A stretch of 64,000 nt of DNA from Vulcanimicrobiota bacterium (GCA_050250895.1 JBFWNU010000004.1:353362-417361), one strand, 5' to 3'; numbered from the stretch's first letter, positions 1 to 24,676 are shown. Notes: generated by a model not told the origin, from the sequence alone. Made by a program: numbers and translations.

Positions 1-1
1 G

Positions 2-283: not shown

Positions 284-369
284 GCTCCGGCAGCGAACCC
301 CGTATCAGCGGGCTTTGCGGCCGGCAGGCTGGGAGGAGATCGTTATTCAACCAGTAATAGTTAGCCCCC

Positions 370-2886: not shown

Positions 2887-2903
2887 TTGCCATAGAGGGC
2901 TAG

Positions 2904-4178: not shown

Positions 4179-4887
4179 GACTCCACGGTTCGAGAAGGTA
4201 ACGCTGCCAGACCCGACCCGGTGTCATCAACAGACGGGCCAGCCATTCGAGGCCCAACCGTCCGGTCCAGCGCGGTGGGGTGGGAATCTCGCCCGTGAGG
4301 TAGTCAAAGATGGCGCCGACCGTGATCGAGACGCAAGGCTCCAGGCGATCGAGATTGTGGCCCAGCCAGGTTTCCTGGCGCGGCATGCCCATTCCCACCA
4401 GCAGCACATGGGGCTGGAAAGCGTTGATATCGCTGACCACCCGCTCGTTGACCCGGGGGTCCTGGGGGTCGAAATAGCCGCTGGCGGCCCGAAATTCCAG
4501 GCCGGGGTAGCGGCTGGCTACATAGTCCTGGCTGCGTTCCACGACCTCCGGGCGTCCGCCCAGAGCGTAAACCCTCCACGATCGGTTCAGAGCCCGCTCG
4601 AGCAACGGGCCGATCCAGTCCAGCACGGTGATTCGATGCTCGGCGCGCAGCGGTTCTCCTAACCAGCGCCCCCAGAAGATCAGCGGCATGCCGTCAATGA
4701 AGCAGGAGTCGGCGCGGGCATAGACCGAGCGCATCGGTTCACAACGATGAAAATGGTAGATGCTGTGGAGATTGTGGTTCACGATGAGGTGGGGCGACGC
4801 ACCGACCCCCCGTGAGACATCCTCCAAGAACTCGTCGAGGTTCATCGGGGTCACCTTCACGCCCAGCAACTGGCAGTCTCTAGGCAT
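4090..4887 (-). CDS. WecB/TagA/CpsF-family glycosyltransferase
   Basis: ORF track frame 4090..5118 trimmed to internal ATG at 4887, 2 nt after the stop of the upstream GT4 gene; conserved segments VYALGG and GMGMPRQE; the upstream 77 codons are Pro/Arg/Ala-rich and overlap the neighbouring gene. Confidence 0.8.
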   Translation of the reverse strand: MPRDCQLLGVKVTPMNLDEFLEDVSRGVGASPHLIVNHNLHSIYHFHRCEPMRSVYARADSCFIDGMPLIFWGRWLGEPLRAEHRITVLDWIGPLLERALNRSWRVYALGGRPEVVERSQDYVASRYPGLEFRAASGYFDPQDPRVNERVVSDINAFQPHVLLVGMGMPRQETWLGHNLDRLEPCVSITVGAIFDYLTGEIPTPPRWTGRLGLEWLARLLMTPGRVWQRYLLEPWSLIPHAVRDLLGRRRAATRPAEPGRDRYHE

Positions 4888-6070: not shown

Positions 6071-6073
6071 GGC

Positions 6074-8685: not shown

Positions 8686-8770
8686 TGTTCATAAGCTTTA
8701 GCCGCTCCTGCCATCGAAAGCCGAGCAGAGCGAGAGGACCTGGTCGCGCCAGGAGGAAGCGGGAGCGACC

Positions 8771-9667
8771 ATGAGGCCGCCTAACTTCTTCGTGATCGGT
8801 GCCCCCAAGTGCGGAACGACTTCCCTGGTGGCCTGGCTATCGGACCACGAGCAGGCGTATCTGTCGCCTTCCAAGGAGCCACGCTACTTCGATCGCGACC
8901 TGAAGACCCGGTTTCGCCTCAACAAAAGCCAGTACGCGGCTCTCTTCCAGCAGGTGCGTGAAGAGCACCGAGCCATCGGAGAGGCGACGGTCCTCTACCT
9001 GTATTCAGAAGAGGCCGTGGACAACATCGAACGCGAACTGCCGGGGTCTCGCTATATCGTGATGCTGCGTAACCCCATCGACCTCGCCTACTCTCACCAT
9101 GAGCAGATGACGCTGCATCTGGGCGAGAATCTGCTGGATTTCGAAAGCGCCTGGCGAGCGAGCCCGAGAAGACGGCAGGGAAAGGGCGTCAATCCTTTCT
9201 TTCTGGCCGAGCCCCGGCTGTTGGACTATCAACGTCTGGGTCAATTGGGAAGTCAACTTGAGGCGGTCTTGCGCAAAGTCGAGCCAGAGCGCGTGCTGGT
9301 CCTGTTCCTCGAGGACCTGGTGAGAAATCCGAGAGCCGAGTATGTCAAAGTCCTCGGCTTTCTAGGCTTGGAGGACGATGGCAGAACGAGCTTTCCCAAG
9401 GAAAATCCGGCCAAGCGCGTCCGTTCACGCTATCTGCAACGCCTGATCACGATGCTCATGAAACTCGAGGTGGTGGTCCGGGCCCGACTCGGATTTGCCC
9501 CCGCCAGCTCAAGACCGCTCAGGGCTCTTAACCTTTGGAACAAGACTCCCCATCCCCGAGAGCCGATGCCTGCCCGGCTCAGGTCGGAACTCGCTCTGCA
9601 TTTTCGGGACGAGGTCGCAAAACTCGAGCAGTTGACCGGTCGCGACTTGAGCCACTGGCACCGCTAA
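8771..9667 (+). CDS. Sulfotransferase (PAPS-dependent family)
   Basis: 298 aa; 5'-phosphosulfate-binding loop FVIGAPKCGTTSL near N-terminus, later RNP.D..YS segment; AGGAGG and GGGAG purine-rich stretch upstream of ATG 8771. Confidence 0.85.
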   Translation: MRPPNFFVIGAPKCGTTSLVAWLSDHEQAYLSPSKEPRYFDRDLKTRFRLNKSQYAALFQQVREEHRAIGEATVLYLYSEEAVDNIERELPGSRYIVMLRNPIDLAYSHHEQMTLHLGENLLDFESAWRASPRRRQGKGVNPFFLAEPRLLDYQRLGQLGSQLEAVLRKVEPERVLVLFLEDLVRNPRAEYVKVLGFLGLEDDGRTSFPKENPAKRVRSRYLQRLITMLMKLEVVVRARLGFAPASSRPLRALNLWNKTPHPREPMPARLRSELALHFRDEVAKLEQLTGRDLSHWHR

Positions 9668-10896
9668 GCTGCTTCTGAGCGGTACCTCGCCCAGACCGCC
9701 ACGGCCAGATAAGCGGCCAGGAACGCCTCGCAGGCAAGCGTGGCCGACACGGCCCCCTTCCACGAGTAGAGCGGGATCAAGTAAGCATTGAGGCCGACGT
9801 TGAGGACGGCCGTGAGCAGCATGGCTTTGCCACGGCCACGTTGCAGGTCTGCGCCGGTGAGAACAGAGCCGGCCAGCTCCTGGGCGATTTTCAGGCCGGG
9901 CAACAGGCAGAGCAGGTGGACCACCGGGATGGTATCCGAGAACTTCGGCCCTAAAAGGATGGGAATTACCGGAGCGAGCAGCCACAGAAGCGCCGCCGTT
10001 CCGCCAGCGTAGGCCAGGGCCGCTGGAACCAGCCCCCGAGTCAACTTGAGTGCTCCCGCCACTCCCTCGGCCCCGGCCTGAAAGTATCTTCGATACATGG
10101 TACGATTCAAGGCCAACAGGGGGGTCAGGCTGACCTGAACGATCCGATAGGCCGCCCCATACAGTCCCGCCGCATCGGCCGTGGCCAGCCGCAGCAACAT
10201 CGCTTTATCGGCATCATTGTTGATCTGTTGGCACGCCTGGGTCATCGAGAAATCGAACCCATCCGACCGGATCACCGCAAAGCTAGACCACTCGATGGCG
10301 GGGGCGTTGAAATGAAAGCGAATCAGTCCATAGGCCAACAAAGCGGACAACAGTCCGGCCGTGACGTAGAAGTTCAGGTAAAACGCCGGGGTGGGCGATT
10401 CGGCCAGGCAGACGAAGACGATCACGGCCACCAGGCGAAAGGCGAAGGGCAGGTGATTGACCAGAGCGGCCATCTTCATGTTGCCGACCGCGTTAAAGGC
10501 CAGCGAAAACCCCTCCGCGATCTTGGTAAAGAACAACTCGCTAAACCCGGTGGCCAGCACGATGGCCAGCCCGAGTTCAGCCGGAAAGAGCCAACGACTG
10601 GCGCAGCCGAGCCCCAGACACAGCGCCAGGGCAGCCACGAAATTCAGCAAGACCATGCGCCCGAGGCAAACCTCTACGCTAGTTTGAGTTCGGGAGACTT
10701 CCCTGACCATGAGCTGAGGCGTGCCCAGACTGGAAAAGGGAGCAAGAATCCCAAAGATTGCGATGACCCCGATTAAGACACCGTAGTCTGACGGCCCAAA
10801 GGTTCGCGCCAGCAACAGGAAGTAAATGGATCGTCCCACCACGTTCGCCACCTGCCCTAAAAGGTTCCAGGTCATCTCGCGCCGACGACTGGTCAT
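9664..10896 (-). CDS. Polysaccharide flippase (Wzx, MOP superfamily)
   Basis: 410-aa highly hydrophobic ORF with about 12 predicted membrane helices; position inside polysaccharide locus; 4-bp overlap with downstream gene end. Confidence 0.8.
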   Translation of the reverse strand: MTSRRREMTWNLLGQVANVVGRSIYFLLLARTFGPSDYGVLIGVIAIFGILAPFSSLGTPQLMVREVSRTQTSVEVCLGRMVLLNFVAALALCLGLGCASRWLFPAELGLAIVLATGFSELFFTKIAEGFSLAFNAVGNMKMAALVNHLPFAFRLVAVIVFVCLAESPTPAFYLNFYVTAGLLSALLAYGLIRFHFNAPAIEWSSFAVIRSDGFDFSMTQACQQINNDADKAMLLRLATADAAGLYGAAYRIVQVSLTPLLALNRTMYRRYFQAGAEGVAGALKLTRGLVPAALAYAGGTAALLWLLAPVIPILLGPKFSDTIPVVHLLCLLPGLKIAQELAGSVLTGADLQRGRGKAMLLTAVLNVGLNAYLIPLYSWKGAVSATLACEAFLAAYLAVAVWARYRSEAA

Positions 10897-12038
10897 GGGA
10901 CGCGGGGGCCACTCCTTCTAACCTCGTCGTAGATTCTTTCCAGCTTACGAGTCTGGGCCTCGAGGTCAAAGTTGGCCACGGCATGGTCGCGGGCCGCTCG
11001 ACTCATGGTTTGCCAGAGCCTGTCGTCGGCGAGCAGTCGCCGACCGAACTCGACGGCCCGCGGGACCGCGTCTTGAGGGAACAGAAAGCCAGTGCGCTCC
11101 TCGGACACCCCTTCGGGGATACCTCCGAGTCGGGTGGCCAAGACCGGCGTGCCGCAGCTTTGGGCCTCGATAAAGACCAGGCCGAAAGCCTCGACCGCTC
11201 CCGAGGGCATCGCCCGACTGGGACCGATCAGGGCTTTGGAGCGCGCCAGCATGGCCCGGATCTCGTCATCGGGCAGGACGCCCATGAAGTCGGCGTTGCA
11301 TCCCAGCGACTCGGCTAGCAGCGTCAGGGCGGGTCGTTCGGGACCATCGCCCACAATCTTCAACCGTAGATCGGCAAAGGTTTGCTGCAGCCGGGCCGCG
11401 ACCCTGATGGCCACATCGCACCCCTTATCGGGCACCAGCCGCCCCACAAAGGCCAGCCAGTTCTGTCTGGGCTCGCTCTCGGGCAGGGGCGCAAAGACGT
11501 CGGTGTCCACACCGATGTAGTGCGTCTCGAGCAAGGCCGGGGAGAAGCCCTTGCGGATGAGTTCGGTTCGCAGCGCCTCGGACACGCACAAAATCCGACA
11601 AATGGAGCCCGGAAGTCGCCATTTGTTGAGGGCATAGTAGCGACCGAGCCACCCCACTTCTTGGAGCAGAGAATGGCGAAAAGCGTCATAACCGTGATAG
11701 GTCACGACCAGGGGCAGGCCGAGAGCCCTGGCCAGGGGCAAGGCCAAAAGGCCATTGGGACCGAAGTGGGCGTGGATGATGGCCGGGTTGCGTCCTCTCA
11801 ACTCGGCCAGCAGGCGGTGGCTGGGTAGTCCCAACCCGAAGGCCAGAATCCCCAGCCACGATTCGTGCTCGCACAGCAACACTGATTCGGCCGTGAGCCA
11901 GTCTCTTTGCCCGCCCGGTCGCAGCCCCAGGAAAAGAGGCCGGTAGTCACGCAGCGCCTCTCCCTGTCTCTTGATAAACGCCTGGGAAAAGGGCAACAGT
12001 CTATCGGTGAAGATTATGGCGGTGGGTCGGGCGCTCAA
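10893..12038 (-). CDS. Glycosyltransferase family 4; start codon uncertain (TTG at 12038 proposed)
   Basis: C-terminal 380 aa of the 10893..12656 frame are a clean GT4 (IIHAHF ... AFVGRLVPDKG ... FGLVFIEAQSCGTPVL); the N-terminal ~200 codons are Arg/Pro-rich and lie antisense-overlapped with the GT1 gene; no in-frame ATG until deep in the domain; TTG at 12038 overlaps the GT1 stop as TTGA. Confidence 0.7.
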   Translation of the reverse strand: MSARPTAIIFTDRLLPFSQAFIKRQGEALRDYRPLFLGLRPGGQRDWLTAESVLLCEHESWLGILAFGLGLPSHRLLAELRGRNPAIIHAHFGPNGLLALPLARALGLPLVVTYHGYDAFRHSLLQEVGWLGRYYALNKWRLPGSICRILCVSEALRTELIRKGFSPALLETHYIGVDTDVFAPLPESEPRQNWLAFVGRLVPDKGCDVAIRVAARLQQTFADLRLKIVGDGPERPALTLLAESLGCNADFMGVLPDDEIRAMLARSKALIGPSRAMPSGAVEAFGLVFIEAQSCGTPVLATRLGGIPEGVSEERTGFLFPQDAVPRAVEFGRRLLADDRLWQTMSRAARDHAVANFDLEAQTRKLERIYDEVRRSGPRVP

Positions 12039-13270
12039 GGTTGCTCGAGTTGTACACCGGAGACCCCAGCTCCTGGATTCTGGTCGAGCAGGACCTGGCA
12101 GGTCAGGTCGGTGGCATTGGCCGCAACGGCGCCAGGACGGTCCTGGGCCAGGAGGCGGGCCAGCCTGGTTCGCATGCCCGACAGGCCGGTCGAACCCAAA
12201 TTCAATCCGGCGCCGAGAGCCTCGAGCCGGGCCGCGTTGTCGGGCTGGTCGTGGGCCATCGGGACCAGCAACTGTGGGATCCCGGCCGCCAGCGCCTGAG
12301 CCGCGGTGCCGACTCCGCCGTGGTGAATCACCACTCTGGCCCGAGCAAACAAGGCGCCAAAGGGGGCCGTGGCCACATGGAAAACATCGTCCTCGGGCGC
12401 CGTGGGAGGCAGGTGAGGCGATACCAACACCACTCGCAGGTTCAGACTGCGGCAAGTGGCCACCGCCTGCCGAAAGCTCTCTTGACCGTGCCTTTGCCCG
12501 GTGCCAAAGGTGACGACGGCCGGAGCGGGACCGGCCGCCAGAAATGCTTCGAGTTCGGACTGCAGCGATTCGTCGTCGCCCAACAGAAAGCCGGTCTGAA
12601 ACCCGGGCCTGGGCCAATCGGCGGCGGGGGCGGCGAACCACCGAGGAAACAACCACAGGTGAATGGCGCCGGCCTGCATCCAGGCGAGCACCTTGGGGGC
12701 CGGGGCCAGGCCTGCGCTCATCCGCACTTCACGGAGGGCGGGCTCTACCAGGCGGTCTATGTTGACTTCGTTGAGCCGGTAGAAGAGCCAGCGAATCCAA
12801 CGAGGCATGGGGGTCACCCACTCCCAACCGCAGATCAGGGGCGTGGCCTCGAGGCTGACGATGCCGGCCGGCGCAAACCAGAGGCAGAAACGGGGCCAAT
12901 CCAGCAACTCTTGCAGGATGCGTGTGGCCGGAAGGGCCAGATAGGTCGAGACCAACCTCCACTCCTGGGCCCGGGGCAGCGAAAGTCCCAGCTCTACGAT
13001 CGGCCGGGTCGCTGGCACCATCAAGCCTTGCAAGACCACTCCGAAAAACCGGCGCGGATGCCAAAAATCGGGGTTGGATAGGGCGGCATCGTAGAGTTCT
13101 CTGGAGAGCACCGAGGTAAAGTCCAGTCCGGCGGCTTCGGCCAGGTCCTGGTAGGGCTCGGGCCCGGCTAGAATCACCGTGTGCCCCCGACGGCATAGCT
13201 CGCCGCCCAGCCGAATGCACGGCCTGATGTCTCCGCCGGTTCCCAGGGCGACCAACAGAAAATTCACCAA
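12035..13270 (-). CDS. GT1-family glycosyltransferase (MGT/UDP-glycosyltransferase-like)
   Basis: 411 aa; N-terminal GTGGD, C-terminal nucleotide-sugar motif VVIHHGGVGT ... HDQPDNA typical of GT1 enzymes. Confidence 0.8.
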   Translation of the reverse strand: MVNFLLVALGTGGDIRPCIRLGGELCRRGHTVILAGPEPYQDLAEAAGLDFTSVLSRELYDAALSNPDFWHPRRFFGVVLQGLMVPATRPIVELGLSLPRAQEWRLVSTYLALPATRILQELLDWPRFCLWFAPAGIVSLEATPLICGWEWVTPMPRWIRWLFYRLNEVNIDRLVEPALREVRMSAGLAPAPKVLAWMQAGAIHLWLFPRWFAAPAADWPRPGFQTGFLLGDDESLQSELEAFLAAGPAPAVVTFGTGQRHGQESFRQAVATCRSLNLRVVLVSPHLPPTAPEDDVFHVATAPFGALFARARVVIHHGGVGTAAQALAAGIPQLLVPMAHDQPDNAARLEALGAGLNLGSTGLSGMRTRLARLLAQDRPGAVAANATDLTCQVLLDQNPGAGVSGVQLEQP

Positions 13271-13366
13271 CCCAGGGCTGCCTGTTCGTTAGCGGTCTCA
13301 TTCGCAGGCCTGGCTCGGTGGGGGTCGAAGGTCGCCCCCAGTCCACAGGTAGGCCGGCGATCCCAG

Positions 13367-14635
13367 GTGTTAGCAGTCACGCCTTTTGAAAAACTCTTCC
13401 TCTATTGCGACGAGGTCGCGGGCCCGACGGCCTTCGAGATCGGGCTCGAATTTACCGCTGACTTCGACCACCAGAAACTGACCGCGGCTCTCGACCGGGC
13501 CGTGACGCGCCACCCGATGCTCTCGGCCCGCATCGAAGAGCATCGCGGGCGGTTGGTCTGGGTGCCTCAGCCTGAATACCACGTTCCGCTCTTGCCGCCC
13601 GCTACCGGCAACCTCCTTTCGCCCTTGCACGGGGGCGGAGTGCGAGTTCGGCTTTCTGACCTGGGGCCGGGCACGCGTCTGCTCTTCGAGATTCATCACA
13701 GTTGCTGTGATGGCCGAGGGGCGTTCTTGTTTCTGGACGACTTTCTCCAGGACTACCACGAACTCTGCGGCGGCGCCGCCCGACGCCGCCCCAAAAGAGA
13801 TCTGTCGGTACTGGAAAGGAGGGGGCAGGTCGAGGTTTCGGAGACCAGCCTCGAACTTTCCCTGTGGCTGAGGCTGCGCCTAGCCTGGGACTTTCTGAGC
13901 ACTCGGCCCCAGGGCTTTGGCGATGTGAAGCGACCAGCTCGGTCGCACCGCCCGTTCTCTCAGCAGCTGTTTTCGCCAGCCCTGAGTTCGCTCATCGACA
14001 GCCGCCTGGCTGGCTCAGGGGCCAATCTTAACGACCTCGGTCTGGCCTTGCTGCTGCGGACGCTGGCCTCTACCTCGTCCTCCTCCCAGCCGCTGCGACT
14101 GCTGGTGCCGACCAGCCTGCGTCGCCTCTCTGACTTCAGGGCCGGGGCCAGCCACCGCACCAGCTTCGCCTTTCTCACCCGGGCCCCACACGATTGCCTC
14201 GGCGGCTTTGCCGACCTGCTCGAGTGGACCGTGGGCGAGACTCGCTTCATCAAAGCGGCCCGTCCCGACTACACCACCGTGTTGGGCGTGAATCTGCTCG
14301 AGCGATTGCGCCTGCTCCGTCGCTTCTTGAGCTGGCCCCAGGCCCGCAACACGGCCGTGCTCTCTTTCATGGACGATGTCACCCGACTCCTCTCGCTCAA
14401 GCGTTTTCCCAGTTCTGCCCAGGGTGTGGGCATTGGCGACCAGGTGTTGAGCGGAGTCTTCGGCGTGCCCCCCACCCGACCGGGCACGAGTCTCAGCTTT
14501 GGCCTGGGCCGCTTCCAGGGGCGCGTCAACGTCTGTCTGAAGGGGGAGCCCCAGGTGGTGTCCGAGCAACTCGAAGCCCAGCTCATGGCGGCCTATACCA
14601 AAGGTTGGCAGGCTTGGGCCGAGGGCGCTCTCTAG
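13367..14635 (+). CDS. Condensation-domain-like acyltransferase (HHxxxDG family; PapA5 / WS-DGAT-like)
   Basis: 422 aa; catalytic-type motif HHSCCDGRG about 110 aa from the N-terminus; convergent with the SDR gene and divergent from GT1; start codon appears to be GTG. Confidence 0.6.
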   Translation: MLAVTPFEKLFLYCDEVAGPTAFEIGLEFTADFDHQKLTAALDRAVTRHPMLSARIEEHRGRLVWVPQPEYHVPLLPPATGNLLSPLHGGGVRVRLSDLGPGTRLLFEIHHSCCDGRGAFLFLDDFLQDYHELCGGAARRRPKRDLSVLERRGQVEVSETSLELSLWLRLRLAWDFLSTRPQGFGDVKRPARSHRPFSQQLFSPALSSLIDSRLAGSGANLNDLGLALLLRTLASTSSSSQPLRLLVPTSLRRLSDFRAGASHRTSFAFLTRAPHDCLGGFADLLEWTVGETRFIKAARPDYTTVLGVNLLERLRLLRRFLSWPQARNTAVLSFMDDVTRLLSLKRFPSSAQGVGIGDQVLSGVFGVPPTRPGTSLSFGLGRFQGRVNVCLKGEPQVVSEQLEAQLMAAYTKGWQAWAEGAL

Positions 14636-15381
14636 AGCAGGCTGATACCGCCGTCCACCACCAGCGTCTGGCCCTGAATCAGGTCGGCCAGGGGGCTCGA
14701 CAGAAACAGGACACTGTCGGCCACATCGTCACAGGTCAGCTTCCGTCCGGCCGTGAGCAGGTGCTGGTCGACTGTTTCGAAGAGAGCCTCGGGCAAGGCT
14801 TTAGTCGATTGGGTTCGCACCAGCCCGGCCAGCACGACATTGAAATTGATCTGCGGAAACTCCAGAGCCAGGTGACGCGTCAGGCTCTCCAAAGCAGCTT
14901 TCGAAGCCCCGATCATGCCATAGTTCTCGATGGCTTTGCGAGCTCCGTGGCTCGACAGGCTCACCACCTTGGGTCGTCCCGAACCGGCTTGCATCCAGGG
15001 CAAGGCGGCCTGCACCAGACTCACCAGGGCCATGGCGTTGACGTTCATGGTGGTCTTGAACTGCTCCGGAGTGATCGAGCGCAGCGAGTGAAAACCGCCC
15101 CGGGCCACATTGCTCACCAGGATGTCCAGTCGGCCGAATCGTTGACCCACAAAGTCGAGCATGGCCTCAATGTCCTCGGCTTCGCCGATGTCGGCTTTGA
15201 CCACCACCGCGTCTCGGCCCAATTGCTGCACCTCTTCGGCCACCTGCTCGGCGGCCCTGGGCGAGGCCAGATAGTTGATGACCACGTCGGCCCCGGCCCG
15301 AGCCAGCTTGAGGGCGCAGGCCCTCCCGATGCCGCGCGAGGCTCCCGTGACCAGCGCCACCTTTCCGTCCAATTCGATCAT
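14632..15381 (-). CDS. Short-chain dehydrogenase/reductase (FabG-like)
   Basis: 249 aa; Rossmann motif VTGASRGIG near N-terminus; 4-bp overlap with PKS stop. Confidence 0.9.
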   Translation of the reverse strand: MIELDGKVALVTGASRGIGRACALKLARAGADVVINYLASPRAAEQVAEEVQQLGRDAVVVKADIGEAEDIEAMLDFVGQRFGRLDILVSNVARGGFHSLRSITPEQFKTTMNVNAMALVSLVQAALPWMQAGSGRPKVVSLSSHGARKAIENYGMIGASKAALESLTRHLALEFPQINFNVVLAGLVRTQSTKALPEALFETVDQHLLTAGRKLTCDDVADSVLFLSSPLADLIQGQTLVVDGGISLL

Positions 15382-18300
15382 GCGCCGATTCGGTTGGGGA
15401 CGCCGAGCCAGGCCAGCCGATAGTCATGGGCCCGCGCCATGAGCTGGCCATCGTCCCCCCAGAGATGAATTTCGAAGCGCTCCTCGCCTATCCATTGCAC
15501 CCTGACGACACAGCGCTCGCCCGGGCGGGTGAGGCGCCCCACCCACAACTCGCCGATAGTCGCTGGCACCGTGTGCCCTTCGCGCACGCTCTTCCAGGCC
15601 AAGATTCCCGCCGCATAGAGACATCCGTCCAGGATGGCCGAGGGCAGCCGCCACCCTACTGTAGAGCGGTGAGAGCCGGCCAGTTCCACCAAGGGTGGGG
15701 CCACCAGTTCGCCCCAGAGAGTCTCTCCCTCTATTTGATAGCGTCGCAGCGTTCGCAACGAGGGCCCGTGGTACATCTGACCCGAGTCGGAATAGGCGAC
15801 CGGCTCCCATTGGTCGGGAACCTCGGGGCAGGCCAGTGACTCGACCGGCATCTCGTTCACCAACTCTACCTCGAGCAAAGTTCGGCGCGCCTCTAACACC
15901 GTTCCGTCGCGGGCCAACTGGGCATAGAGCAGCCTCACCGTATTGTCGTCACGAGCCACTTCCACCTGGCGTGGACGCCCCTCGTGGAACTTCAGAAACC
16001 CTGCCGGTCGGACTCGCCTCAAGCCGATGGGGCCAGGACCTCGAGATTGCGCCTCGCAGGCCAACTCGAGGGCCACCACCAGGGGTAGTACCGGAACGTC
16101 TTCCACCCGATGGTCTCGCAAGAAGGCTTCCTGCTCGGGATCGAGCCATACCTGATTGGAGGTTCCCAGCAGGGGTCGGGCGGCCTGCTGCGTCTCGAAC
16201 AGCTCGGCGTGATAGAATCTGCGGTAATAGTGCTCATCGGTGATGAGCACCTCGGCTCTGGGGGCGCCGGCCTGCAACTCGGCGATGAGGTGAGCGACCC
16301 CCTCGGCCGCTGGCATGAAGTTCATGTTCACTAACTCGAGACCCAGCTGGCTCTCGCCTTTGACGGCCATTCCGACATCGCCCCAGGCGTGCCAATGAAA
16401 GGTCACCGCGCCGACCTCCGGCCGTTGCTGACGATAATAGGCCACTAGCTTGGCCATCATCTCGTTGGCGGCCGAATAGTCGGCGTGCCCGTTGGCCCCG
16501 AACCGACCACTGATCGAGCCGAAGGCGACAAAGAAGTCGAGCGGGTCTGCAGCCATCAGGCTCATCAAGTTGTGGGTTCCCAGGACCTTGGCTCCCAAGC
16601 ATTCCCCCACCTTTTGGTGGTCCTTCTGCTCGAACTTCGAATCGCGGGTGGCCCCGGCCCCATGCAGGACGCCGCGAATGGGTCCATCGGCCCGGATCGC
16701 CTGAAGAGTTTGGGCCAGCCGGTCCCGATCGCTCAAGTCGCAACTGTGATAGTGCGCTTCCAGGCCGGCTTCGTGGAGGGCCACCAGGGCCGCCTCGATC
16801 TCGAGGCCCTTCTCGACGGCTTCCCAGCTTTTGACCGGGTTGGCTGCTCCCTGAGAGCGAGCCGTATCCATCACTTCCAGCTTCAATCCACGGCGGTCCT
16901 GTAGCCAACGGGCTCGCCACTCGGGCGGATGCGAGGGACCGGGGGCCCGTCCGATGAGATGGAGCTTCAATCCGAAGCGGCCGGCCAGTTCGCGGGCGAC
17001 GTGGGCAGTGATGCCCCGGGCCCCGCCGGTGCAGACCCAGTTACCGCGCGGCAACACCGCCTGGCCGTCCCGGTCGTCCACTGGCTGGGGTTCGGCCGTC
17101 ACCAGGGCCCGTTGGCCGGCGATTTCACCGATCTCGAGCTCATAGTTGCGGTGGCAAAGCTCTCGTAGCACGCGCTGGCCAGCGTCTGAGGCACTGATAT
17201 CAGGGCCGCAGTCGATAACTTTCACGGTCAAATCGCGATGTCCGGCTACCCAATTCTCGATGCGCATCGACTTTAAAAGGCCGGCCAGAAATCCTCCGTC
17301 AGGACCCTCTATGGGCGTTCCAAAGCCGAAGCCGCCCCCGAGTCTGGTCACGGCCACCACGGTGGCCTCGTCCACCAGGCCGTCTCCCTTGACCCGCCGC
17401 AACCATTCCTGGCAGAGCCAGAACGGAGTCGTGATGCGGGCGGTGTAATGCTCTGGCCGCTCCAGTTCGCCCGGCACCCAGGCGGTGGTGATAAACAGGT
17501 GGGGTAGCGGCCCGAGCGCTTCGAGACCTCGCTTGAGTTCCGTCAAGGCCCGGTGGGTATCGAGGATATGGACCGGCCCCCTGAGGCGGCTCGCGAGTTC
17601 ACGACTCAAAGCGTTGTCTCCGATGATCAGCGAAGCTCCGCCAAGGCTGCGAGTGGGCGAGAGCGGGAGGGGACATTCGACCATCCTCATCAGGTAGCGC
17701 TGAGTCTGGTCGGGGGTCGAGCCGGGCAGGGTCCCGTGGCGCTCTTTGTAGCCGATCAGGTTGTAGAGATGGACTCCCGCTCCCTCGGCCAGGCCGCGAA
17801 GCTCTTCCAGGGTGGCCGGGTCGAGGCCGGCCTCGAGGTCTTTCCCAGGCCGCCTTTGCCAGGGAAAGACCTTGAGCGCATCGTGGCGCAGAGCCGCGCG
17901 GATGGCTTGGGATTGCGCCCGGCCACGTAGCCGAGCACTTTCATAGGCCTGCCCGCTGACGCGGGGCAGGAGCGGCGCCTCGGCCTCGGTCGGGGCCTCG
18001 GTCACCCCGATATGCTCGAGAATGTCTTTGAGGCTTCGGAGGTTGGCCAGCTCTTTGTCAGAGGTGTCTAGACCGAAGGCATCGCGCAGCTCGCCCAGCA
18101 ATTGGGTTCTTTTGATACTGTCGATGCCGAGGTCGGCCTCGAGTTCCCATTCCAGCTTGAGCGCGCTACGTGGATAGCCCGTCAGGTCGGCAACATGGTC
18201 GAGGAGAAAGGCTTGAGCGCGGGCGTCGATGGCCGTGGTGCGTGTCTTGCCGCTAAGGCTGTCTTCCCCCAGCACGCGCTCGAGGCGGGGCCGGGTCGCG

Positions 18301-21300
18301 TCGAAATGATCGATGCTTCCGAGCCCTCTCTGGGTGGTCGTCGAGCGCGCCTGGGGCAGCCGGTCGACGCATTCGAAGGCGGCTTCGAGGCGGGCCCACT
18401 GGAGGGCCCGCTGGCGACGCGGGTGGTCGACCGAAGTCACGATCACATTGCGCTCCTTCAAATTTTGGCGGGCCAGTTGAGTCAACACCTGTTTAGGGCC
18501 CACTTCGACGAGCAGGCCGACTCCGTCGTTCACGAGTTGATCCAGGAGCTGACCAAATCGGACCGGCTCGACCAGTTGCCGAACCAGATTCTGGCGGATG
18601 ACCTCGACCTGGGTAGCCGGCTGATTGGTCACGTTACTGTAAAACAGGATCGTGGGTGGACGCAGCTCGAGCCTGGCCAGCCGGGCTTCGAGGGCCGTCT
18701 GAGCCGATGCCACCAAAGGAGTGTGAAGGGCGCCCGGAACCTTGAGCCGGCGAGTGGGCATGCTGTCTTTTCTCAGCTCGCTCTCCAGGGCGGCCAGCTG
18801 ACTGTTAAGGCCGCCCACCACCGTCTGACCGGCGGCGTTATAATGGGTGAAATAAAGTCCTAGCTCGGCCACCAGAGGCTCGAGCCGTTGGGGAGGCGCG
18901 GCCACGGAAAGCAGACCTCCGTCGGGCGAGGCTGCTAGCAGAGCCTGAGCGCGGACCTGGGTCAGCTCCAGAGCGTCTTCGAAGGTCATGACCCCGGCCG
19001 CCACCAGGGCAGGAATCTCGCCAAAGCTGTGGCCACACACACAGTCGGGCCGATAGCCTTGCTCGTCGAGCACGGCGAAAGCGATCTGATCAGCGATCAA
19101 GACGGCCAACTGGGTGACCACCGGGTCGGCGTCAAGGCGCTCATCCGCTTGCCAGGCCAGGAGTCCAAAGCCAGGCAGGCCCATCTTCTCGAGGGCAGCG
19201 TCGGCCCGGCGCACCACGGCTGCCGCGGCCGCGGACCCGCTCACCAGGTCTCGCAGCATGCCTTGATACTGAGAGCCCTGACCCGAGAAAAGATAAGCGA
19301 TCCGCGGTCGAGCACGGCCGAGTTCGCAGTAGAAGATACCCTGCTCTTCGAGCAGGCGCCGGCCCTTGGCTTCGGCCAACTGGTCAGCTGCCAGAGCCAC
19401 ATTCTGGGCCAGGCGAGGCTGGTCGGGAGCCACGGCCACCAGGCGGACCGGGTCGGCCTGCGCCAGGCCCTGGCGACCCTCGCGAAGGTTGGTCGCCAGT
19501 TGGTTCGGGTCGTGGGCACTGTAGCGAGCCACCCGGGCGGTGACGGATGACCGGGGGCCGGCGCCCTCGAAGATGAGCTGGGCAGCCTGGCCGGTCTCGG
19601 CCAGGCCGGCCAGCACCACTCTCTCTTGCGGATGGCACAAGCTAGCTCTCAACAACGAGAGCATCCCCCCGGCCGCATGCAGAGCCCCGAATTGGGCGGC
19701 CAATGAGGGCAAGAGGGGCTTGCCGCAGACCCGCTCCAAAACCGGGGCCAACTCGGCCGAGGGGGCATCAGCCAGGGCAAGGCCCGGGTCAGACAAGGCA
19801 GGGCCGACCACCAATTCGAGGGCCGACTCGGGGGTGAGTCCGCTGGCGAGTTCTGCCGTGTGCAAAAGGCCATAGATTCGGTCCCCGTCCTGCTGGGCTC
19901 GGTCGAGGGTCTTGAGGATGACCACTCCGACCCCTTCGCCTGGCAACTGGGCGCTCAAACGACCTTTGAGGGCAAGACTCTCGAACCCCACCAGGTCCAT
20001 GGAGTGCTGGCCGGCCGCCACCACCACGGCTGAGCAATCGCCGCCCCGCAGCAGGTCACAACCCACCTTCAAGGCCGCCTCGGACGATGTCTCGCCCACA
20101 TCGAGAGCCAGGGCTCCACCGCGCCAATCGTGGGCTTTAGTCAATCGTGAAGCGAGAGAGCTACAGGTAAAGCCTCCCGTCTCGTCGAGCAGTGCCGAGT
20201 ATCGCTCGAAGAAAATCCGGTCGAACTGCTCGAGCAATCCGGGCTTCGAGAGGCCCAACTCAGCCAGCAGCCTGGCCACCTCACGGCGAATCTCGGCGTG
20301 GCGAAAGCCCACTTGCATCTGATTGCCGAAGTCCGAACAAAAACTCGCGCCCACCACCACGGCTGTCGAGTTTGCCTCGAGTGGGGAGCCCAGCTCTGCC
20401 AGGGCCTGATTGGTCGCATCCAACAGCATCAGCTGGACCGGATTGGCCCGCTTGACCTGCTTGGGAGGAATCTTGTGGCCGACGGCGTCGAACTCGAAGT
20501 TAGTGATGTAGCCACCGCGACGGGTGGGCGTATGCCAGGGCTGGAGCTGCTCGGCCAGGCCGGCGTCACTGGGCCAGCGACCGGCCGGCGGTTCGCCGAG
20601 TTGGGACTGGCCGCTGCCGAGCAACTCTTTCAACTCGCCCAGGTTGCGAGCGCCGGGGACGACGACGCCGCGCCCGACCACCGCCACCAGCGGCTCGTCG
20701 GCGGCCACCGGCTCGACCGGTCCGCCTGGCTCTTCGACCACCAGGTGAACGTTGAGACCGCCCACCCCAAAGGCGCTGACACCGGCTCGGCGAGTCTCTC
20801 CCTGACGGGGCGCAGGCCAATCGGACGGCTCTCGCTGGACCACGAAAGGTAGCCGCGACCAGTCCACTCCGGGGTTGAGCTGGTCGACGTTGATGGTGTG
20901 GGGAATGCCGCGGTGTCTCAAGGCCAGCACGACCTTCAACAAACTGGCCAGTCCGGCCGTCTCGAGCGTATGCCCCAAATTGGACTTGACACTGCCGATG
21001 GGTATCTGGCGTCCTTTCAGATGAGGCCCGAAAAAGGTCGACAAAGACTCGAGTTCGGTGGCGTCACCCAGCTGAGTGCTGGTGGCGTGGGCTTCGATGT
21101 ACTGGACGCTGGCCGCGTCGACTCCGGCGTAGCAACGTTGCAGCGCCTCGAGCTGTCCCTCGGCACGGGGGGCCCACAGACTGCGACCGCGACCATCCGA
21201 AGACAGACCGATCGAGCGGATCACCGCTTGCATCGAATCCCCGTCGCGGCGGGCCGCATCGGCCCGCTTGAGGACCATTGCCACCACTCCTTCGGAGCTG

Positions 21301-22088
21301 ATCAGGCCGTCGGCTTCGGCATCGAACGGGCGCGAGCCGGACGCGCTGCACGATTGGGCGTGGGAAAAGAGAATGAGGCTCTCCGTCTTGTTGTAGGAGG
21401 ACCCTCCGACGATGGCCAGGTCGATTTCGCCCCGGGTCAGAGCCAGGGCGGCCAGGGAGAGAGCCACCAACGACGAGGCACAGGCGGCGTCTACCACCAG
21501 CTGAGGGCCGGCCAACCCCAGTTGCCGGACCAGCAGGCCCGCGATCCATTGGGCCTCGAGACACGGTTTGCCTTCCCCGTCGCGGCGAGGCCGTCCGCGG
21601 CGTAGCTGGCCGGTCAGGGCTTGCATGGCGGCCTGACGCGTCTGGGTCGGCAAAGCGCGAAAATCGGGCAAGCACTCGAGCAACTCCGCCACCTGAGCGG
21701 CCAGGGTGGCTACCACCAGTTCTCCCCCCCGGGGCGTTCCTCCGGAGTGACCGGCATAGACACCGACTCGCTGGCCTTGCAGCCCGTCAGCATAGCCCGC
21801 CTCGGCCAGCGCTTCCAGAGCCACATCGCAAAAGATGCGGTGGCTCAAGTCATAGGAATCATCTCCCGAGCGGGCCTGGCAAGACTTGAGGCAGCCGCCG
21901 ATGCTGGAGTAAGTCTTTCCCACCTGACCGCGGGTCGAATCAAAGTAAAGTTCTCGGTCCAGTCGCTCGGGGGGCAACTCGCGAACCGCATCATGGCCGT
22001 TCCAGAGCAACTCCCAGAATTCGGCCGGGTTGTCCGAATCGGGCAGGCGGCAGCCGCACCCCAATATCGCGATAGGAGCGATCTTCAT
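15378..22088 (-). CDS. Type I polyketide synthase, single module: KS / KS-like / AT / ACP / KR / DH
   Basis: 2236 aa; KS DAACASS + HATST + GHT; AT GQGSQ + GHSFGE; ACP LGIDSI; KR TGGARGIT + YSAAN; C-terminal HRVEDVPVLP hot-dog motif; 4-bp overlaps with flanking genes. Confidence 0.9.
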   Translation of the reverse strand: MKIAPIAILGCGCRLPDSDNPAEFWELLWNGHDAVRELPPERLDRELYFDSTRGQVGKTYSSIGGCLKSCQARSGDDSYDLSHRIFCDVALEALAEAGYADGLQGQRVGVYAGHSGGTPRGGELVVATLAAQVAELLECLPDFRALPTQTRQAAMQALTGQLRRGRPRRDGEGKPCLEAQWIAGLLVRQLGLAGPQLVVDAACASSLVALSLAALALTRGEIDLAIVGGSSYNKTESLILFSHAQSCSASGSRPFDAEADGLISSEGVVAMVLKRADAARRDGDSMQAVIRSIGLSSDGRGRSLWAPRAEGQLEALQRCYAGVDAASVQYIEAHATSTQLGDATELESLSTFFGPHLKGRQIPIGSVKSNLGHTLETAGLASLLKVVLALRHRGIPHTINVDQLNPGVDWSRLPFVVQREPSDWPAPRQGETRRAGVSAFGVGGLNVHLVVEEPGGPVEPVAADEPLVAVVGRGVVVPGARNLGELKELLGSGQSQLGEPPAGRWPSDAGLAEQLQPWHTPTRRGGYITNFEFDAVGHKIPPKQVKRANPVQLMLLDATNQALAELGSPLEANSTAVVVGASFCSDFGNQMQVGFRHAEIRREVARLLAELGLSKPGLLEQFDRIFFERYSALLDETGGFTCSSLASRLTKAHDWRGGALALDVGETSSEAALKVGCDLLRGGDCSAVVVAAGQHSMDLVGFESLALKGRLSAQLPGEGVGVVILKTLDRAQQDGDRIYGLLHTAELASGLTPESALELVVGPALSDPGLALADAPSAELAPVLERVCGKPLLPSLAAQFGALHAAGGMLSLLRASLCHPQERVVLAGLAETGQAAQLIFEGAGPRSSVTARVARYSAHDPNQLATNLREGRQGLAQADPVRLVAVAPDQPRLAQNVALAADQLAEAKGRRLLEEQGIFYCELGRARPRIAYLFSGQGSQYQGMLRDLVSGSAAAAAVVRRADAALEKMGLPGFGLLAWQADERLDADPVVTQLAVLIADQIAFAVLDEQGYRPDCVCGHSFGEIPALVAAGVMTFEDALELTQVRAQALLAASPDGGLLSVAAPPQRLEPLVAELGLYFTHYNAAGQTVVGGLNSQLAALESELRKDSMPTRRLKVPGALHTPLVASAQTALEARLARLELRPPTILFYSNVTNQPATQVEVIRQNLVRQLVEPVRFGQLLDQLVNDGVGLLVEVGPKQVLTQLARQNLKERNVIVTSVDHPRRQRALQWARLEAAFECVDRLPQARSTTTQRGLGSIDHFDATRPRLERVLGEDSLSGKTRTTAIDARAQAFLLDHVADLTGYPRSALKLEWELEADLGIDSIKRTQLLGELRDAFGLDTSDKELANLRSLKDILEHIGVTEAPTEAEAPLLPRVSGQAYESARLRGRAQSQAIRAALRHDALKVFPWQRRPGKDLEAGLDPATLEELRGLAEGAGVHLYNLIGYKERHGTLPGSTPDQTQRYLMRMVECPLPLSPTRSLGGASLIIGDNALSRELASRLRGPVHILDTHRALTELKRGLEALGPLPHLFITTAWVPGELERPEHYTARITTPFWLCQEWLRRVKGDGLVDEATVVAVTRLGGGFGFGTPIEGPDGGFLAGLLKSMRIENWVAGHRDLTVKVIDCGPDISASDAGQRVLRELCHRNYELEIGEIAGQRALVTAEPQPVDDRDGQAVLPRGNWVCTGGARGITAHVARELAGRFGLKLHLIGRAPGPSHPPEWRARWLQDRRGLKLEVMDTARSQGAANPVKSWEAVEKGLEIEAALVALHEAGLEAHYHSCDLSDRDRLAQTLQAIRADGPIRGVLHGAGATRDSKFEQKDHQKVGECLGAKVLGTHNLMSLMAADPLDFFVAFGSISGRFGANGHADYSAANEMMAKLVAYYRQQRPEVGAVTFHWHAWGDVGMAVKGESQLGLELVNMNFMPAAEGVAHLIAELQAGAPRAEVLITDEHYYRRFYHAELFETQQAARPLLGTSNQVWLDPEQEAFLRDHRVEDVPVLPLVVALELACEAQSRGPGPIGLRRVRPAGFLKFHEGRPRQVEVARDDNTVRLLYAQLARDGTVLEARRTLLEVELVNEMPVESLACPEVPDQWEPVAYSDSGQMYHGPSLRTLRRYQIEGETLWGELVAPPLVELAGSHRSTVGWRLPSAILDGCLYAAGILAWKSVREGHTVPATIGELWVGRLTRPGERCVVRVQWIGEERFEIHLWGDDGQLMARAHDYRLAWLGVPNRIGA
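15381..16226 (-). other. PKS dehydratase-like hot-dog domain, approx. residues 1955-2236
   Basis: HRVEDVPVLP (HxxxDxxxxP variant of the DH HxxxGxxxxP motif) at ~1993-2002. Confidence 0.55.
16344..17651 (-). other. PKS ketoreductase (KR) domain, approx. residues 1480-1915
   Basis: NADPH-binding VCTGGARGIT (~1685-1694) and catalytic YSAAN (~1871). Confidence 0.75.
17994..18236 (-). other. PKS acyl carrier protein (ACP) domain, approx. residues 1285-1365
   Basis: Phosphopantetheine attachment motif ADLGIDSI (Ser ~1324); only one such motif found. Confidence 0.75.
18399..19301 (-). other. PKS acyltransferase (AT) domain, approx. residues 930-1230
   Basis: FSGQGSQ at residues ~934-940 and active-site GHSFGE at ~1019-1024. 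Confidence 0.8.
19854..20693 (-). other. PKS second KS-like segment lacking catalytic Cys (chain-length-factor-like), approx. residues 466-745
   Basis: KS-like N-terminal half (VAVVGRGVVVPG, NPVQLMLLDA, LDVGETSS in place of Cys motif, GEGVGVVILK) that then loses KS similarity. Confidence 0.5.
20733..22082 (-). other. PKS ketosynthase (KS) domain, approx. residues 3-452
   Basis: Active-site Cys in DAACASS (residue ~203), His in EAHATST and NLGHT. Confidence 0.8.
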
Positions 22089-23458
22089 GCGGCCCCTAGT
22101 AGATCGACGACGTGCATCAGCATTTTTAGCGCTTCATCCAGGCGCTCGGAGTCCCCGACGAGCACCAGCTCACCTGCATAGAGAGCTTGCTCTGGGGTCA
22201 GCTGGCGGCCTGCCAGGTGAGCCAGCGTAGGCAGGCTGCAAAACGCTTCAGGCGCGCATTCGACTCTTGTCAGGGGAGTGCGTCCCGTTTCGGCAAAACC
22301 CCATTGTCCCCCTTCGGGTCCGGGCACGGTCAAAAAGAGCCGGGGTTCTGAGTTTGAGGCCAGCGGAATTCGCGAAAGTCGCCGGGCCAGATCCCACTCC
22401 GGCGCAGCCTGAAAGCGATGTTCCAGGGCGAAACCGACCAGCCGTTTAAGCGCCTCGCCATCCAGACGAGGGCAAGGCACGCCACTGTGCTCGAGGGTCA
22501 GCTGGCAGTCAAAGGTCGGATGGTTGCTGAGATAGGGTCGATAGGTCGACACCGCGGCCGGCCCGTCGAGCGATTGAACCGATGGCGGTTGGTCATCCTC
22601 GCTTCGACAGGCGCGCACAGCGTCATACAGAGCTTGGAAGCTGGTGGGATGAGGATTGGTCAGATGATAATATTGCTGGGCCGAGCGCTCCTGGCCCAGC
22701 AACGCGATGACCACCTGCGAGACCCAGTCCACCGGAACCAGGTTGATCCCGTCCTCGGGGTCTTCGACCCCTACCGTTTCTAGTAGTGAACGACTGCTCG
22801 AGGCCGAGTTCAGCCAGGTCAGCAAGAGGAGCGGGTACGCTCCCTGAAAATTCGGGGTGTAGCCGGTGGAAGACTCGCCTACGATGATGGAAGGACGATA
22901 GATGGTGAAACGCCGCAGAAACTCGGCCTGGGCAACCAGCGACTCGGCCAGGGCCTTGCTGCGCTCGTAGTCATTGTTGAAGACCTGGTGAAGGGGCACG
23001 GGTCGGGGCTCAAGGTTGGGAACGGTGGCCCCGCAGACGTAGGCGGTCGAAATCAAGTGAAACTCGTCGAGGTCACACCCGCGACTCAGTTCGAGCAGGC
23101 GGGCGGTTGCGTCGACATTGGTCAGATAAGGTTCTCCACTGCCATCGGCTCGAAACTTCACGGTGGCTGCCGAATGCAACACCCGGCAGCAGTGGTTCTT
23201 GAGCCACTCACGAGCCTGCTCGTCAAGACCGAGATCGGGTTGGCGCAGGTCACCCTCGATGAGCTGGGGACGAGGGAGCTGGCGGGCCAGCCCTCTTTCC
23301 AGTCGCTGGCAACAAACCTCGATCCTTTCGGCTGCAGACGCTCCGTTCGTCGGGCGAGCCAAAACCGCGAGGTTCAAGCCTTGCAATAGACCGTCACGCA
23401 TCAAAAACTGGCCCAGCAGGCCGGTTGCTCCGGTGAGTAGCGTAAAGGTTCTATCCAT
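22085..23458 (-). CDS. Stand-alone thioester reductase-domain protein (NAD(P)-dependent fatty acyl reductase-like)
   Basis: 457 aa; LLTGATGLLGQFL Rossmann motif at N-terminus, YERSK catalytic-type motif; no ACP segment; stop overlaps PKS start by 4 bp. Confidence 0.7.
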   Translation of the reverse strand: MDRTFTLLTGATGLLGQFLMRDGLLQGLNLAVLARPTNGASAAERIEVCCQRLERGLARQLPRPQLIEGDLRQPDLGLDEQAREWLKNHCCRVLHSAATVKFRADGSGEPYLTNVDATARLLELSRGCDLDEFHLISTAYVCGATVPNLEPRPVPLHQVFNNDYERSKALAESLVAQAEFLRRFTIYRPSIIVGESSTGYTPNFQGAYPLLLLTWLNSASSSRSLLETVGVEDPEDGINLVPVDWVSQVVIALLGQERSAQQYYHLTNPHPTSFQALYDAVRACRSEDDQPPSVQSLDGPAAVSTYRPYLSNHPTFDCQLTLEHSGVPCPRLDGEALKRLVGFALEHRFQAAPEWDLARRLSRIPLASNSEPRLFLTVPGPEGGQWGFAETGRTPLTRVECAPEAFCSLPTLAHLAGRQLTPEQALYAGELVLVGDSERLDEALKMLMHVVDLLGAA

Positions 23459-23532: not shown

Positions 23533-23590
23533 CAAGTCTAAGACAGTATACGAGATCCTCCGAGATTTCAAGTCTTTGGCCAAGTCTTCA
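23533..23590. promoter_or_regulatory. Three direct copies of CAAGTCT (plus two CGAGAT) in the region upstream of the thioester reductase-PKS-SDR operon
   Basis: Copies at ~23533, ~23569 and ~23581 in the 130-bp gap between the hydroxylase gene end and the reductase start codon (23458, minus strand). Confidence 0.3.
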
Positions 23591-24676
23591 AGCCTGACCA
23601 CGGGTCTCGATGGTGGGTCTTTCGATAGCGGTCTGGGCTTCTTTCCAGCGAACTCCACCGGGCAAGAGGTTGTAGGCTCGCTGGAGTCGAGCGATGGCGC
23701 GGGTTTCGGCCGTCGACAAACAAGGGTGCCACAGGTTGAGAAAGAGGACCACCCTGAGCTGATCGCTGTGATTCCAGACCTCGTGCACGAAAGCGTCGTC
23801 AAACACCAGCACTTCGCCCTCCTCCCAGGTGGCCACCTGACCGCCGACTCGCAGGCCACAGTGGTCGGGCACCAACAGACCCAGATGGAAGCGAAGAATA
23901 CCGTTGATGGTGCCTACATGAGGAATGATTCGGCTCTGGGGGTTGAGGGCCGAGAACAGGATGAACTCTTTCTCGAGCCGGGGCAGACTGGCCAGCAACC
24001 CGCTCGTCAGGGGACAGCGTCGACAGTTGTCTTCCACCGCCTCACCCTGAATGTAGAAGTGGAAGGTGTTCCAGCCCGGCATCAGGTTGCCGTACTCCGT
24101 GCGATAGTTGCCAAAACCGCGCGGCTCCGCCAAGAGATCGTTCAACTCGTGGCGAATGGTCTGGCAATGCTCGCGCAGGATGGAGGTCCAGGGAAAATCT
24201 GAAGCCTGGTAGAGCCGGCGGGCGGGAATGCCAGGCAAAAAGAAGTGGGGGCGTTGATGGGGGTCGGTAAACTCGGTGCAAGGCCAATCGTCTTGATGGA
24301 AAAAGACGTCGAGAAAGCCGGACCGGTGGAACAGCGCTTCGGCCACGTTGCGATATCCGAGCCTGGCACAACCCCGTTGGAACGTGGCGTGGGCGTCCAG
24401 TCCGAACACCGCTCGGGCGAAGGCGTCGGTCTGGGCTGGTCGGAACTGGTTGGCCAGGTCACGCCAGAACCGGGCCGTGGGGTTGCTGACGAAGGCCCCT
24501 CCCAGGGCCCAGAGCCGATGCAGCCCCCACACCGACAGCCCGAGCGCGGTGGGGCCGCTCGCCGCCACCCTGGCCCAGACCCGGCGCAGCCAGGCCGGCA
24601 GACGCACCGGAGAACCATCCAAACCCAGCTGGTCGTAGCTCACCTGCATCAATTGTTCGAAAGTAGGTTGGGCCAC
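23588..24676 (-). CDS. Asp/Asn beta-hydroxylase-family Fe(II)/2-oxoglutarate oxygenase (LpxO-like)
   Basis: 362 aa; C-terminal cupin segment IPHVGTINGILRFHLGL ... DDAFVHEVWNHSD ... NLWHP resembling the aspartyl/asparaginyl beta-hydroxylase family. Confidence 0.65.
   Translation of the reverse strand: MAQPTFEQLMQVSYDQLGLDGSPVRLPAWLRRVWARVAASGPTALGLSVWGLHRLWALGGAFVSNPTARFWRDLANQFRPAQTDAFARAVFGLDAHATFQRGCARLGYRNVAEALFHRSGFLDVFFHQDDWPCTEFTDPHQRPHFFLPGIPARRLYQASDFPWTSILREHCQTIRHELNDLLAEPRGFGNYRTEYGNLMPGWNTFHFYIQGEAVEDNCRRCPLTSGLLASLPRLEKEFILFSALNPQSRIIPHVGTINGILRFHLGLLVPDHCGLRVGGQVATWEEGEVLVFDDAFVHEVWNHSDQLRVVLFLNLWHPCLSTAETRAIARLQRAYNLLPGGVRWKEAQTAIERPTIETRGQA

Follow-up and report, generated by a model that had tools for sequence, protein, structure and literature searches.

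A stand-alone condensation-superfamily enzyme linked to an iterative polyketide synthase, and its tentative assignment to ester formation

Stand-alone proteins with the fold of nonribosomal peptide synthetase (NRPS) condensation (C) domains set the release and attachment of polyketide synthase (PKS) and fatty-acid products. PapA5, the phthiocerol dimycocerosyl transferase of Mycobacterium tuberculosis (PDB 1q9j), has Mas and Pps as its partners, wax ester synthase/diacylglycerol acyltransferases (WS/DGAT; Marinobacter Ma1, PDB 6chj; 7nxg) use a CoA-bound donor and pair with a fatty acyl reductase (FAR), and Bamb_5915 (PDB 6cgo) is the chain-releasing stand-alone C domain of enacyloxin. AzeD of Pseudomonas aeruginosa (PDB 8s6l) is a stand-alone C-family dehydratase that acts on a small heterocycle in an NRPS pathway; its motif reads PHxxxDG, the first His varying in one third of the AzeD clade (bioRxiv 10.64898/2026.07.17.738954). 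The present analysis concerns a gene in a 64,000-nucleotide stretch of DNA from a Vulcanimicrobiota bacterium (GCA_050250895.1 JBFWNU010000004.1:353362-417361), hereafter the window. Its product, referred to here as the condensation-like (C-like) protein, is a bona fide member of the HHxxxDG condensation superfamily, with its chloramphenicol acetyltransferase (CAT) fold, and it belongs to no curated family inside that superfamily. A literature search found no paper describing this family; the stieleriacine cluster of Stieleria uses unrelated N-acyl amino acid synthases.

Superfamily membership of the C-like protein

The gene and its motif are as follows.

13367..14635, plus strand: condensation-superfamily (CAT-fold) stand-alone enzyme, 422 aa, GTG start, identified as an open reading frame (ORF) and by homology
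13694..13714 (residues 110-116), plus strand: HHSCCDG catalytic motif, His110-His111-x3-Asp115-Gly116, identified by alignment to HHxxxDG

A sequence-only reading of the window had described a soluble 422-aa ORF with HHSCCDG about 110 residues in, divergent from a glycosyltransferase gene (GT1) and convergent with an operon encoding a short-chain dehydrogenase/reductase (SDR) and a PKS. ORF coordinates, motif position and hydropathy all agree with that description, no membrane segment being predicted in the protein (19-residue Kyte-Doolittle maximum 0.81, GRAVY -0.08). The NCBI call on the contig of the source metagenome-assembled genome (MAG) is the identical gene, annotated as "hypothetical protein AB7S38_27030", and the identical protein was found on three contigs. 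Taken alone, the motif lies close to chance and is little proof: a six-frame translation of the window contains two HH...DG matches versus 0.28 expected from shuffles, and the other instance (HHRGRDG at 33070, plus strand), which is out of frame with a GGDEF response-regulator gene (32192-34444), is a chance occurrence. The motif observation becomes meaningful because homology and fold support it.

With the single protein as query, a word-indexed protein search returned the self match alone, to which a family profile added five more, and a search of PDB sequences with phmmer gave E-values of 0.009 and 0.6, the second alignment (TycB) lying on HHxxxDG. Scans with hidden Markov models (HMMs) yielded a marginal AATase match and no match to WS/DGAT models, whether PF03007/PF06974 in Pfam or those in NCBIfam. 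An exhaustive phmmer search against 1.84 billion representatives recovered 1252 clusters at E<=1e-3, of which 668 reach E<=1e-10; apart from the protein itself, the best match has 39% identity. In an alignment of 121 family sequences, His111 and Asp115 are invariant, His110 is conserved at 99% and Gly116 at 91%, with a motif consensus of FHHACCDGxGA; the second His, on which the sequence-only reading had made its assignment depend, is thus kept throughout. The same alignment contains a C2-like RHPLL (RHxxL) and an NDLLL (NDxLL) motif, so that the family shares fold, HHxxxDG, RHxxL and NDxLL with the NRPS C and epimerization (E) domains of PF00668. The profile built from these 121 sequences matches NRPS C/E domains (BacC, PvdL) at E-values near 1e-23, AzeD at 7.5e-20, PapA5 at 3e-16 and WS/DGAT at 2e-9 and 9e-6, and HHSCCDG aligns to the HHxxxDG of TycB, BacC, PvdL and PapA5. 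Narrowing the profile to the 13 closest relatives makes PapA5 the top single-domain match, with HHaccDG placed over the PapA5 HHCMADG. PF00668 is matched by all 13 of these relatives at E<0.01, weakly (best 4e-9), and eight of the 13 give weak matches to the NCBIfam models for WS/DGAT (TIGR02946, sub-threshold, best 2e-11) and eight to those for PapA5 (best 4e-11); PF16911 (PapA_C) is matched by two of the 13 and PF03007 by one, at E 0.0099.

The predicted structure agrees with this placement. An AlphaFold2 model computed with an alignment reached a pLDDT of 95.3 and a pTM of 0.94, with 383 of the 422 residues at pLDDT >=90; the model depends on the alignment, pLDDT being 38 for the single sequence. 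It shows the two-lobed pseudo-dimeric CAT fold, and a Foldseek search with it returned C, E and heterocyclization (Cy) domains and PapA5-like proteins, and nothing else, at E-values near 1e-17. The superfamily proposed by the sequence-only reading (condensation/PapA5/WS-DGAT) is therefore borne out by family profile matches, motif alignment and predicted C-domain fold. Identities as a Cy domain (DxxxxD) or an X domain (HRxxxDD) were ruled out, on the sequence and on established knowledge, the HHxxxDG motif being intact. NRPS C/E domains are parts of megasynthases, whereas the C-like protein is free-standing. Identity to PapA5 is about 14%, and the structural match to Bamb_5915 is much weaker than those to PapA5 or AzeD.

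AzeD, at 14% identity, is the closest look-alike, and its example shows that stand-alone C proteins can dehydrate. The C-like enzyme might accordingly perform a chemistry other than acyl transfer on a polyketide or lipid intermediate, as an AzeD-like dehydratase, an epimerase or a cyclase. Such a role is quite unlikely: the PHxxxDG motif of AzeD, with its variable first His, differs from a family in which both His residues are conserved, the identity is low, the PKS of the window already has a dehydratase domain, and no NRPS is present.

Lipid-type neighbours in the window and in related loci

The C-like gene faces a minus-strand operon in which thioester reductase (TR) and PKS genes lie upstream of the SDR gene. 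The PKS combines ketosynthase (KS), chain-length factor (CLF), acyltransferase (AT), acyl carrier protein (ACP), ketoreductase (KR) and dehydratase (DH) domains.

14632..15381, minus strand: FabL-like SDR, probable trans enoyl-ACP reductase of the PKS (Pfam adh_short_C2, 195.6 bits)
15378..22088, minus strand: iterative PfaA/HglE-like type I PKS, KS-CLF-AT-ACP-KR-DH, 2236 aa (Pfam domains)
22085..23458, minus strand: stand-alone TR, NAD_binding_4, 457 aa (Pfam, 147.8 bits)
23588..24676, minus strand: homologue of OlsC/LpxO-like Fe/2OG acyl 2-hydroxylases (Pfam Asp_Arg_Hydrox, 154 bits)

The C-like and SDR genes are convergent and their stop codons overlap by 4 bp (14632-14635), an arrangement that leaves terminators no room and in which the two transcripts would overlap in antisense. 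FabL is the closest family to the SDR, at 252.6 bits versus an NCBIfam cutoff of 328. PfaA is the best curated match of the PKS (NCBIfam, 584 bits); its first KS carries the active-site Cys and a second KS-like region does not, the AT reads GHSFG and the ACP LGIDSI, and a Pfam domain scan found no thioesterase (TE) or reductase (R) domain in it. The TR scores 113 bits with TIGR01746, under the cutoff of 213.35, and the hydroxylase homologue 120 bits with OlsC and 79 bits with LpxO in NCBIfam, both below cutoff. OlsC and LpxO act on membrane lipids, whose ester-linked acyl chains they hydroxylate at position 2. In most large ORFs of the 64-kb window, Pfam scans found no adenylation (A) or peptidyl carrier protein (PCP) domain, and no ORF of NRPS size occurs in the window, the largest besides the PKS encoding 892 aa.

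Homologues of the window genes were used to probe 166 related loci (designated by L and a number) from genomes and metagenomes, and neighbour counts were taken from the 83 of these that span at least 12 kb. The PKS was found at 19 of the 83, the SDR (>=45% identity) at 17, the TR at 13, and a phosphopantetheinyl transferase (PPTase) and an AMP-ligase at 10 each; SDR homologues adjoining C-like genes have 50-62% identity. Among the best 80 of 208 confirmed genome loci almost all are from Planctomycetota, including Pirellulales, Planctomycetaceae, Gemmataceae and the isolate Stieleria marina. The source MAG (GCA_050183855.1) is labelled Vulcanimicrobiota and the family is almost exclusively planctomycetal, a mismatch that points to horizontal transfer, mis-binning or a distribution wider than the genome set shows.

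A neighbour-joining tree places the window protein with those of L002, L003, L008, L043, L057 and L068, all of which carry PKS, SDR or TR genes; L084 and L085, counted in the same clade, also carry PKS and/or SDR and/or TR. The linkage of a stand-alone enzyme to a PKS resembles that of PapA5 and is kept across two clades, co-directional operons included. One tight example is at L003 (59-12759), where a co-directional TR-PKS-SDR-C-like operon is followed by a gene for a Wzy_C-like membrane protein and has no Rieske gene. A recurrent operon elsewhere carries, in order, the PKS, a Rieske ring-hydroxylating-type oxygenase, the FabL-like SDR, a Wzy_C-like (O-antigen-ligase-like) membrane protein and the C-like protein, the Wzy_C-like gene coming after the C-like gene in L097.

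L008, 103-11317: PKS-Rieske-SDR-Wzy_C-C-like
L092, 3648-11302: the same operon
L097, 1257-9297: the same operon, in its variant order

In the second clade (L005, L015, L027, L035, L036, L042 and others) the C-like gene faces SDR-PPTase-PKS, a convergent layout like that of the window. The closest metagenomic relatives (34-39% identity) carry genes for the C-like protein, an 80-aa ACP and a FabF-like KS with short gaps or overlaps between them, and in L084 and L085 this group is divergent from TR-PKS-SDR. At the end of the window, the C-terminal end of a FabF-like ketosynthase (63922-64000, minus strand) runs off the stretch; the fragment, which across 24 aa is about 79% identical to the stand-alone KS found in related loci, probably belongs to a housekeeping FabF. 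The order at L083, whose C-like protein is 36% identical, is AspH-C-like-ACP-KS-TR, and L002 carries the same genes, interrupted by a desaturase and a CMAS-type methyltransferase. The window hydroxylase has homologues (60-69% identity) in L002 and in L083, where the gene immediately precedes the C-like gene. The gene call at L083 8243-9814 (P0004) fuses the C-terminal part of this OlsC/LpxO-like hydroxylase to the C-like protein; the fusion is probably a frameshift (contig coverage about 2x) and still shows the hydroxylase directly upstream. In many planctomycete loci C-like paralogues are paired, in tandem in L044, L055, L058, L064, L065, L069, L072, L074, L077 and L028, and convergently in L030; this hints at repeated duplication and perhaps at paralogues that act in sequence or as heteromers.

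TR homologues stand directly beside the C-like gene in L025, L029, L030, L068, L084 and L085. No PKS was detected at L025, L029 or L030 in the available stretch, which covers about 10 kb on both sides only in L030. Two loci of a sister clade place a class-III aminotransferase and an AMP-ligase between the TR and the C-like protein, preceded in L012 by PKS-PPTase-SDR.

L012, 5592-11377: TR-aminotransferase-AMP-ligase-C-like
L149, 5919-10950: TR-aminotransferase-AMP-ligase-C-like

This layout would fit the formation of a fatty amine followed by its N-acylation, and it bears on the idea that the enzyme forms amides, transferring a carrier-bound chain to a fatty amine, an amino sugar or an amino acid, in the manner of VibH and the zeamine stand-alone C enzyme. 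Genuine amide-forming C domains are also among the top sequence and structure matches. For the window, however, amide formation is very doubtful, since the surroundings of the gene, there and in its own clade, contain no aminotransferase, adenylation domain or PCP, and the weak curated bacterial matches are to the O-acyltransferases PapA5 and WS/DGAT.

Glycan-type neighbours and the nature of the acceptor

On its other side, the C-like gene shares a divergent intergenic region with a GT1-GT4-Wzx operon. That operon ends a complete-looking Wzx/Wzy-type polysaccharide cluster (window 1-13270), which may be a sulfated exopolysaccharide locus.

2-277: Bac_transf fragment
370-2886: Wza/SLBB exporter
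2904-4178: Wzy_C
4090-5118, minus strand: WecG
4880-6070, minus strand: GT4
6074-7462, minus strand: GH10
7459-8685, minus strand: GNVR/Wzz
8771-9667, plus strand: sulfotransferase
9664-10896, minus strand: Wzx
10893-12038, minus strand: GT4 (NCBI call, 381 aa)
12035..13270, minus strand: GT1 (EryCIII/MGT-like), first gene of the GT1-GT4-Wzx operon (Pfam and NCBIfam)
13271..13366: divergent intergenic region of 96 bp, common to the C-like gene and the GT1-GT4-Wzx operon (from coordinates)

The GT1/GT4 and GT4/Wzx junctions are both 4-bp overlaps, which makes GT1 a member of that operon. A longer GT4 ORF (587 aa, 10893-12656, minus strand) that overlaps GT1 was rejected as an over-extension in GC-rich sequence. 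In 13271..13366 no match to the sigma-70 consensus appeared, and scanning the surroundings of the gene for promoters and terminators gave no informative signal.

The sequence-only reading had proposed that the enzyme may ester-link the PKS product to a sugar or polyol. As a glycolipid acyltransferase it would place the PKS-made chain on a sugar or polyol hydroxyl and feed a (possibly sulfated) glycoconjugate, much as PapA1 and PapA2 acylate trehalose-2-sulfate. The shared 96-bp region and the nearby sulfotransferase speak for this idea, as do L083, which joins the lipid genes with Wzx, Bac_transf, two sulfotransferases and GT4, L068, with an epimerase and two GT2 genes past the SDR, and the Wzy_C-like proteins that flank the C-like gene in L003, L008, L092 and L097. 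The conservation of neighbours runs the other way: a GT1 homologue occurs near none of the 166 related loci, whereas PKS, enoyl reductase and TR recur, and homologues of sulfotransferase, GT4 and Wzx occur at one locus only (L083), not as conserved partners. The Wzy_C protein of the window is also unrelated to the Wzy_C-like partner in L003, and the glycan genes of the window resemble a standard Wzx/Wzy polysaccharide cluster that may be no more than a neighbour. A glycolipid product is hence somewhat unlikely, and GT1 is at most a putative partner of the C-like enzyme; of the earlier proposal, the superfamily stands and the sugar or polyol acceptor finds little support.

Favoured chemistry and its significance

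The C-like enzyme likely performs acyl transfer of some kind, and in its mode of action it probably works like PapA5 or WS/DGAT (or Bamb_5915), by analogy with these enzymes. Our preferred assignment, held tentatively, is a PapA5/wax-synthase-like esterification in which a carrier-bound very-long acyl chain is transferred to a pathway-derived alcohol or diol. What the analysis establishes is the fold, the motif, the family and the gene linkage; from these the acyl-transfer chemistry, the donor and the acceptor are inferred. From the gene content of the loci, the clade of the window protein is proposed to work with an iterative PKS, a FabL-like trans enoyl reductase and a stand-alone TR. The conserved association of a TE-less PKS with a trans enoyl reductase, a TR and a C-fold enzyme suggests two converging release routes. 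In one, the TR would release part of the very-long acyl chains as aldehyde or alcohol. In the other, the C-type enzyme would take a carrier-protein-bound (or CoA-bound) acyl thioester and, with His111 as general base or oxyanion organiser, acylate a hydroxyl, which most likely belongs to the alcohol or diol that arises through the TR. A lipid of the wax-ester or diol-ester type would result, like those made by PapA5 or by FAR and WS/DGAT, and its ester-linked chain may in turn be 2-hydroxylated by the OlsC/LpxO-like hydroxylase. Esterification of the wax type is favoured by the TR-C-like pairs of L025, L029 and L030, which mirror the FAR and WS/DGAT pathway, and O-acyl transfer by the weak curated matches, which are to PapA5 and WS/DGAT; the aminotransferase in the L012/L149 order implies a reduced chain end as nucleophile.

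Each of the known systems differs from the window in some respect. PapA5 works with Mas and Pps in another host lineage, whereas the partners here are an iterative PfaA-like KS-CLF PKS, a trans enoyl reductase and a TR. In contrast to WS/DGAT, the C-like genes are PKS-linked and the likely donor is carrier-protein-bound rather than CoA-bound; the place of the FAR may be taken by an NAD_binding_4 TR, which lies in the operon here and beside the C-like gene in many relatives. The NRPS domains have megasynthase surroundings, and the neighbours of the C-like protein are PKS, SDR and TR. The likeness in logic to Bamb_5915 rests on established knowledge, and the window lacks a separate ACP and KS. 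We regard the C-like proteins as a new family whose set of partners is also new and whose chemistry is presumably familiar.

Several observations weigh against the esterification assignment. The window protein alone is below every curated family threshold, so that the HMM check suggested by the sequence-only reading (PF00668, PF03007/PF06974 and PapA5) fails for the single protein: it scores 15.7 bits with PF00668, under the Pfam gathering threshold of 30.6, and 16.5 bits with the NCBIfam PapA5 model NF006787, whose cutoff is 396. AzeD, the closest structure, is a dehydratase and not an acyltransferase; about three quarters of the family loci have no PKS within 10 kb; and genes for glycan handling repeatedly lie close to some relatives, which leaves room for an acceptor other than a simple alcohol. 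The ACP-KS pair of the close relatives was sought in the 64-kb window and is absent. The window copy itself has a His at the 98%-conserved Asn263 (N263H), in the C5-motif-like AANxxS, and a Phe at Asn334 (N334F) and an Asp at Gly336 (G336D) within the conserved LSNxGD, and a deletion near residue ~236 removes an 89%-conserved Trp. Judged by these residues, the copy could be atypical or impaired, with weakened or altered activity possible. A degenerate or non-catalytic protein, such as a scaffold or a decaying paralogue, would account for these substitutions, for the lost Trp, for a length among the shortest in the family and for the missing ACP-KS partners. It is highly improbable given an intact ORF, a complete HHxxxDG, a model that is confident throughout and the occurrence of the identical protein on three contigs.

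A broader possibility is that the family is the coupling enzyme of an undescribed envelope-lipid pathway, joining very-long chains by ester bonds, either one to another or onto an acceptor from a glycan or the envelope. Planctomycetes are reported to contain C26-C32 (omega-1)-hydroxy fatty acids that are found only residue-bound (PMC3327967), and chains such as these would be made by the PKS, trans enoyl reductase and TR, with Wzy_C-like membrane proteins and Rieske and LpxO-like hydroxylases assisting in some loci. Tying these residue-bound acids to the PKS/C-like pathway is speculation, and an envelope-lipid role of this kind is unlikely; if true, the resulting bound lipid or glycoconjugate would form a class of its own, new to science.

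For the window itself, the outcome is a sound annotation rather than a surprise. The wider interest lies in the family, which is large (>1000 clusters at 50% identity), mainly planctomycetal and essentially unannotated ("hypothetical protein"). If its members form esters, as in the assignment preferred here, it could supply a new ester-forming off-loading enzyme for the engineering of long-chain esters. The biosynthesis of the unusual very-long-chain lipids of Planctomycetota is unassigned and the family is repeatedly tied to a TE-less PKS and a reductase; once its donor and acceptor are identified, it would be clear what this widespread orphan gene cluster makes.
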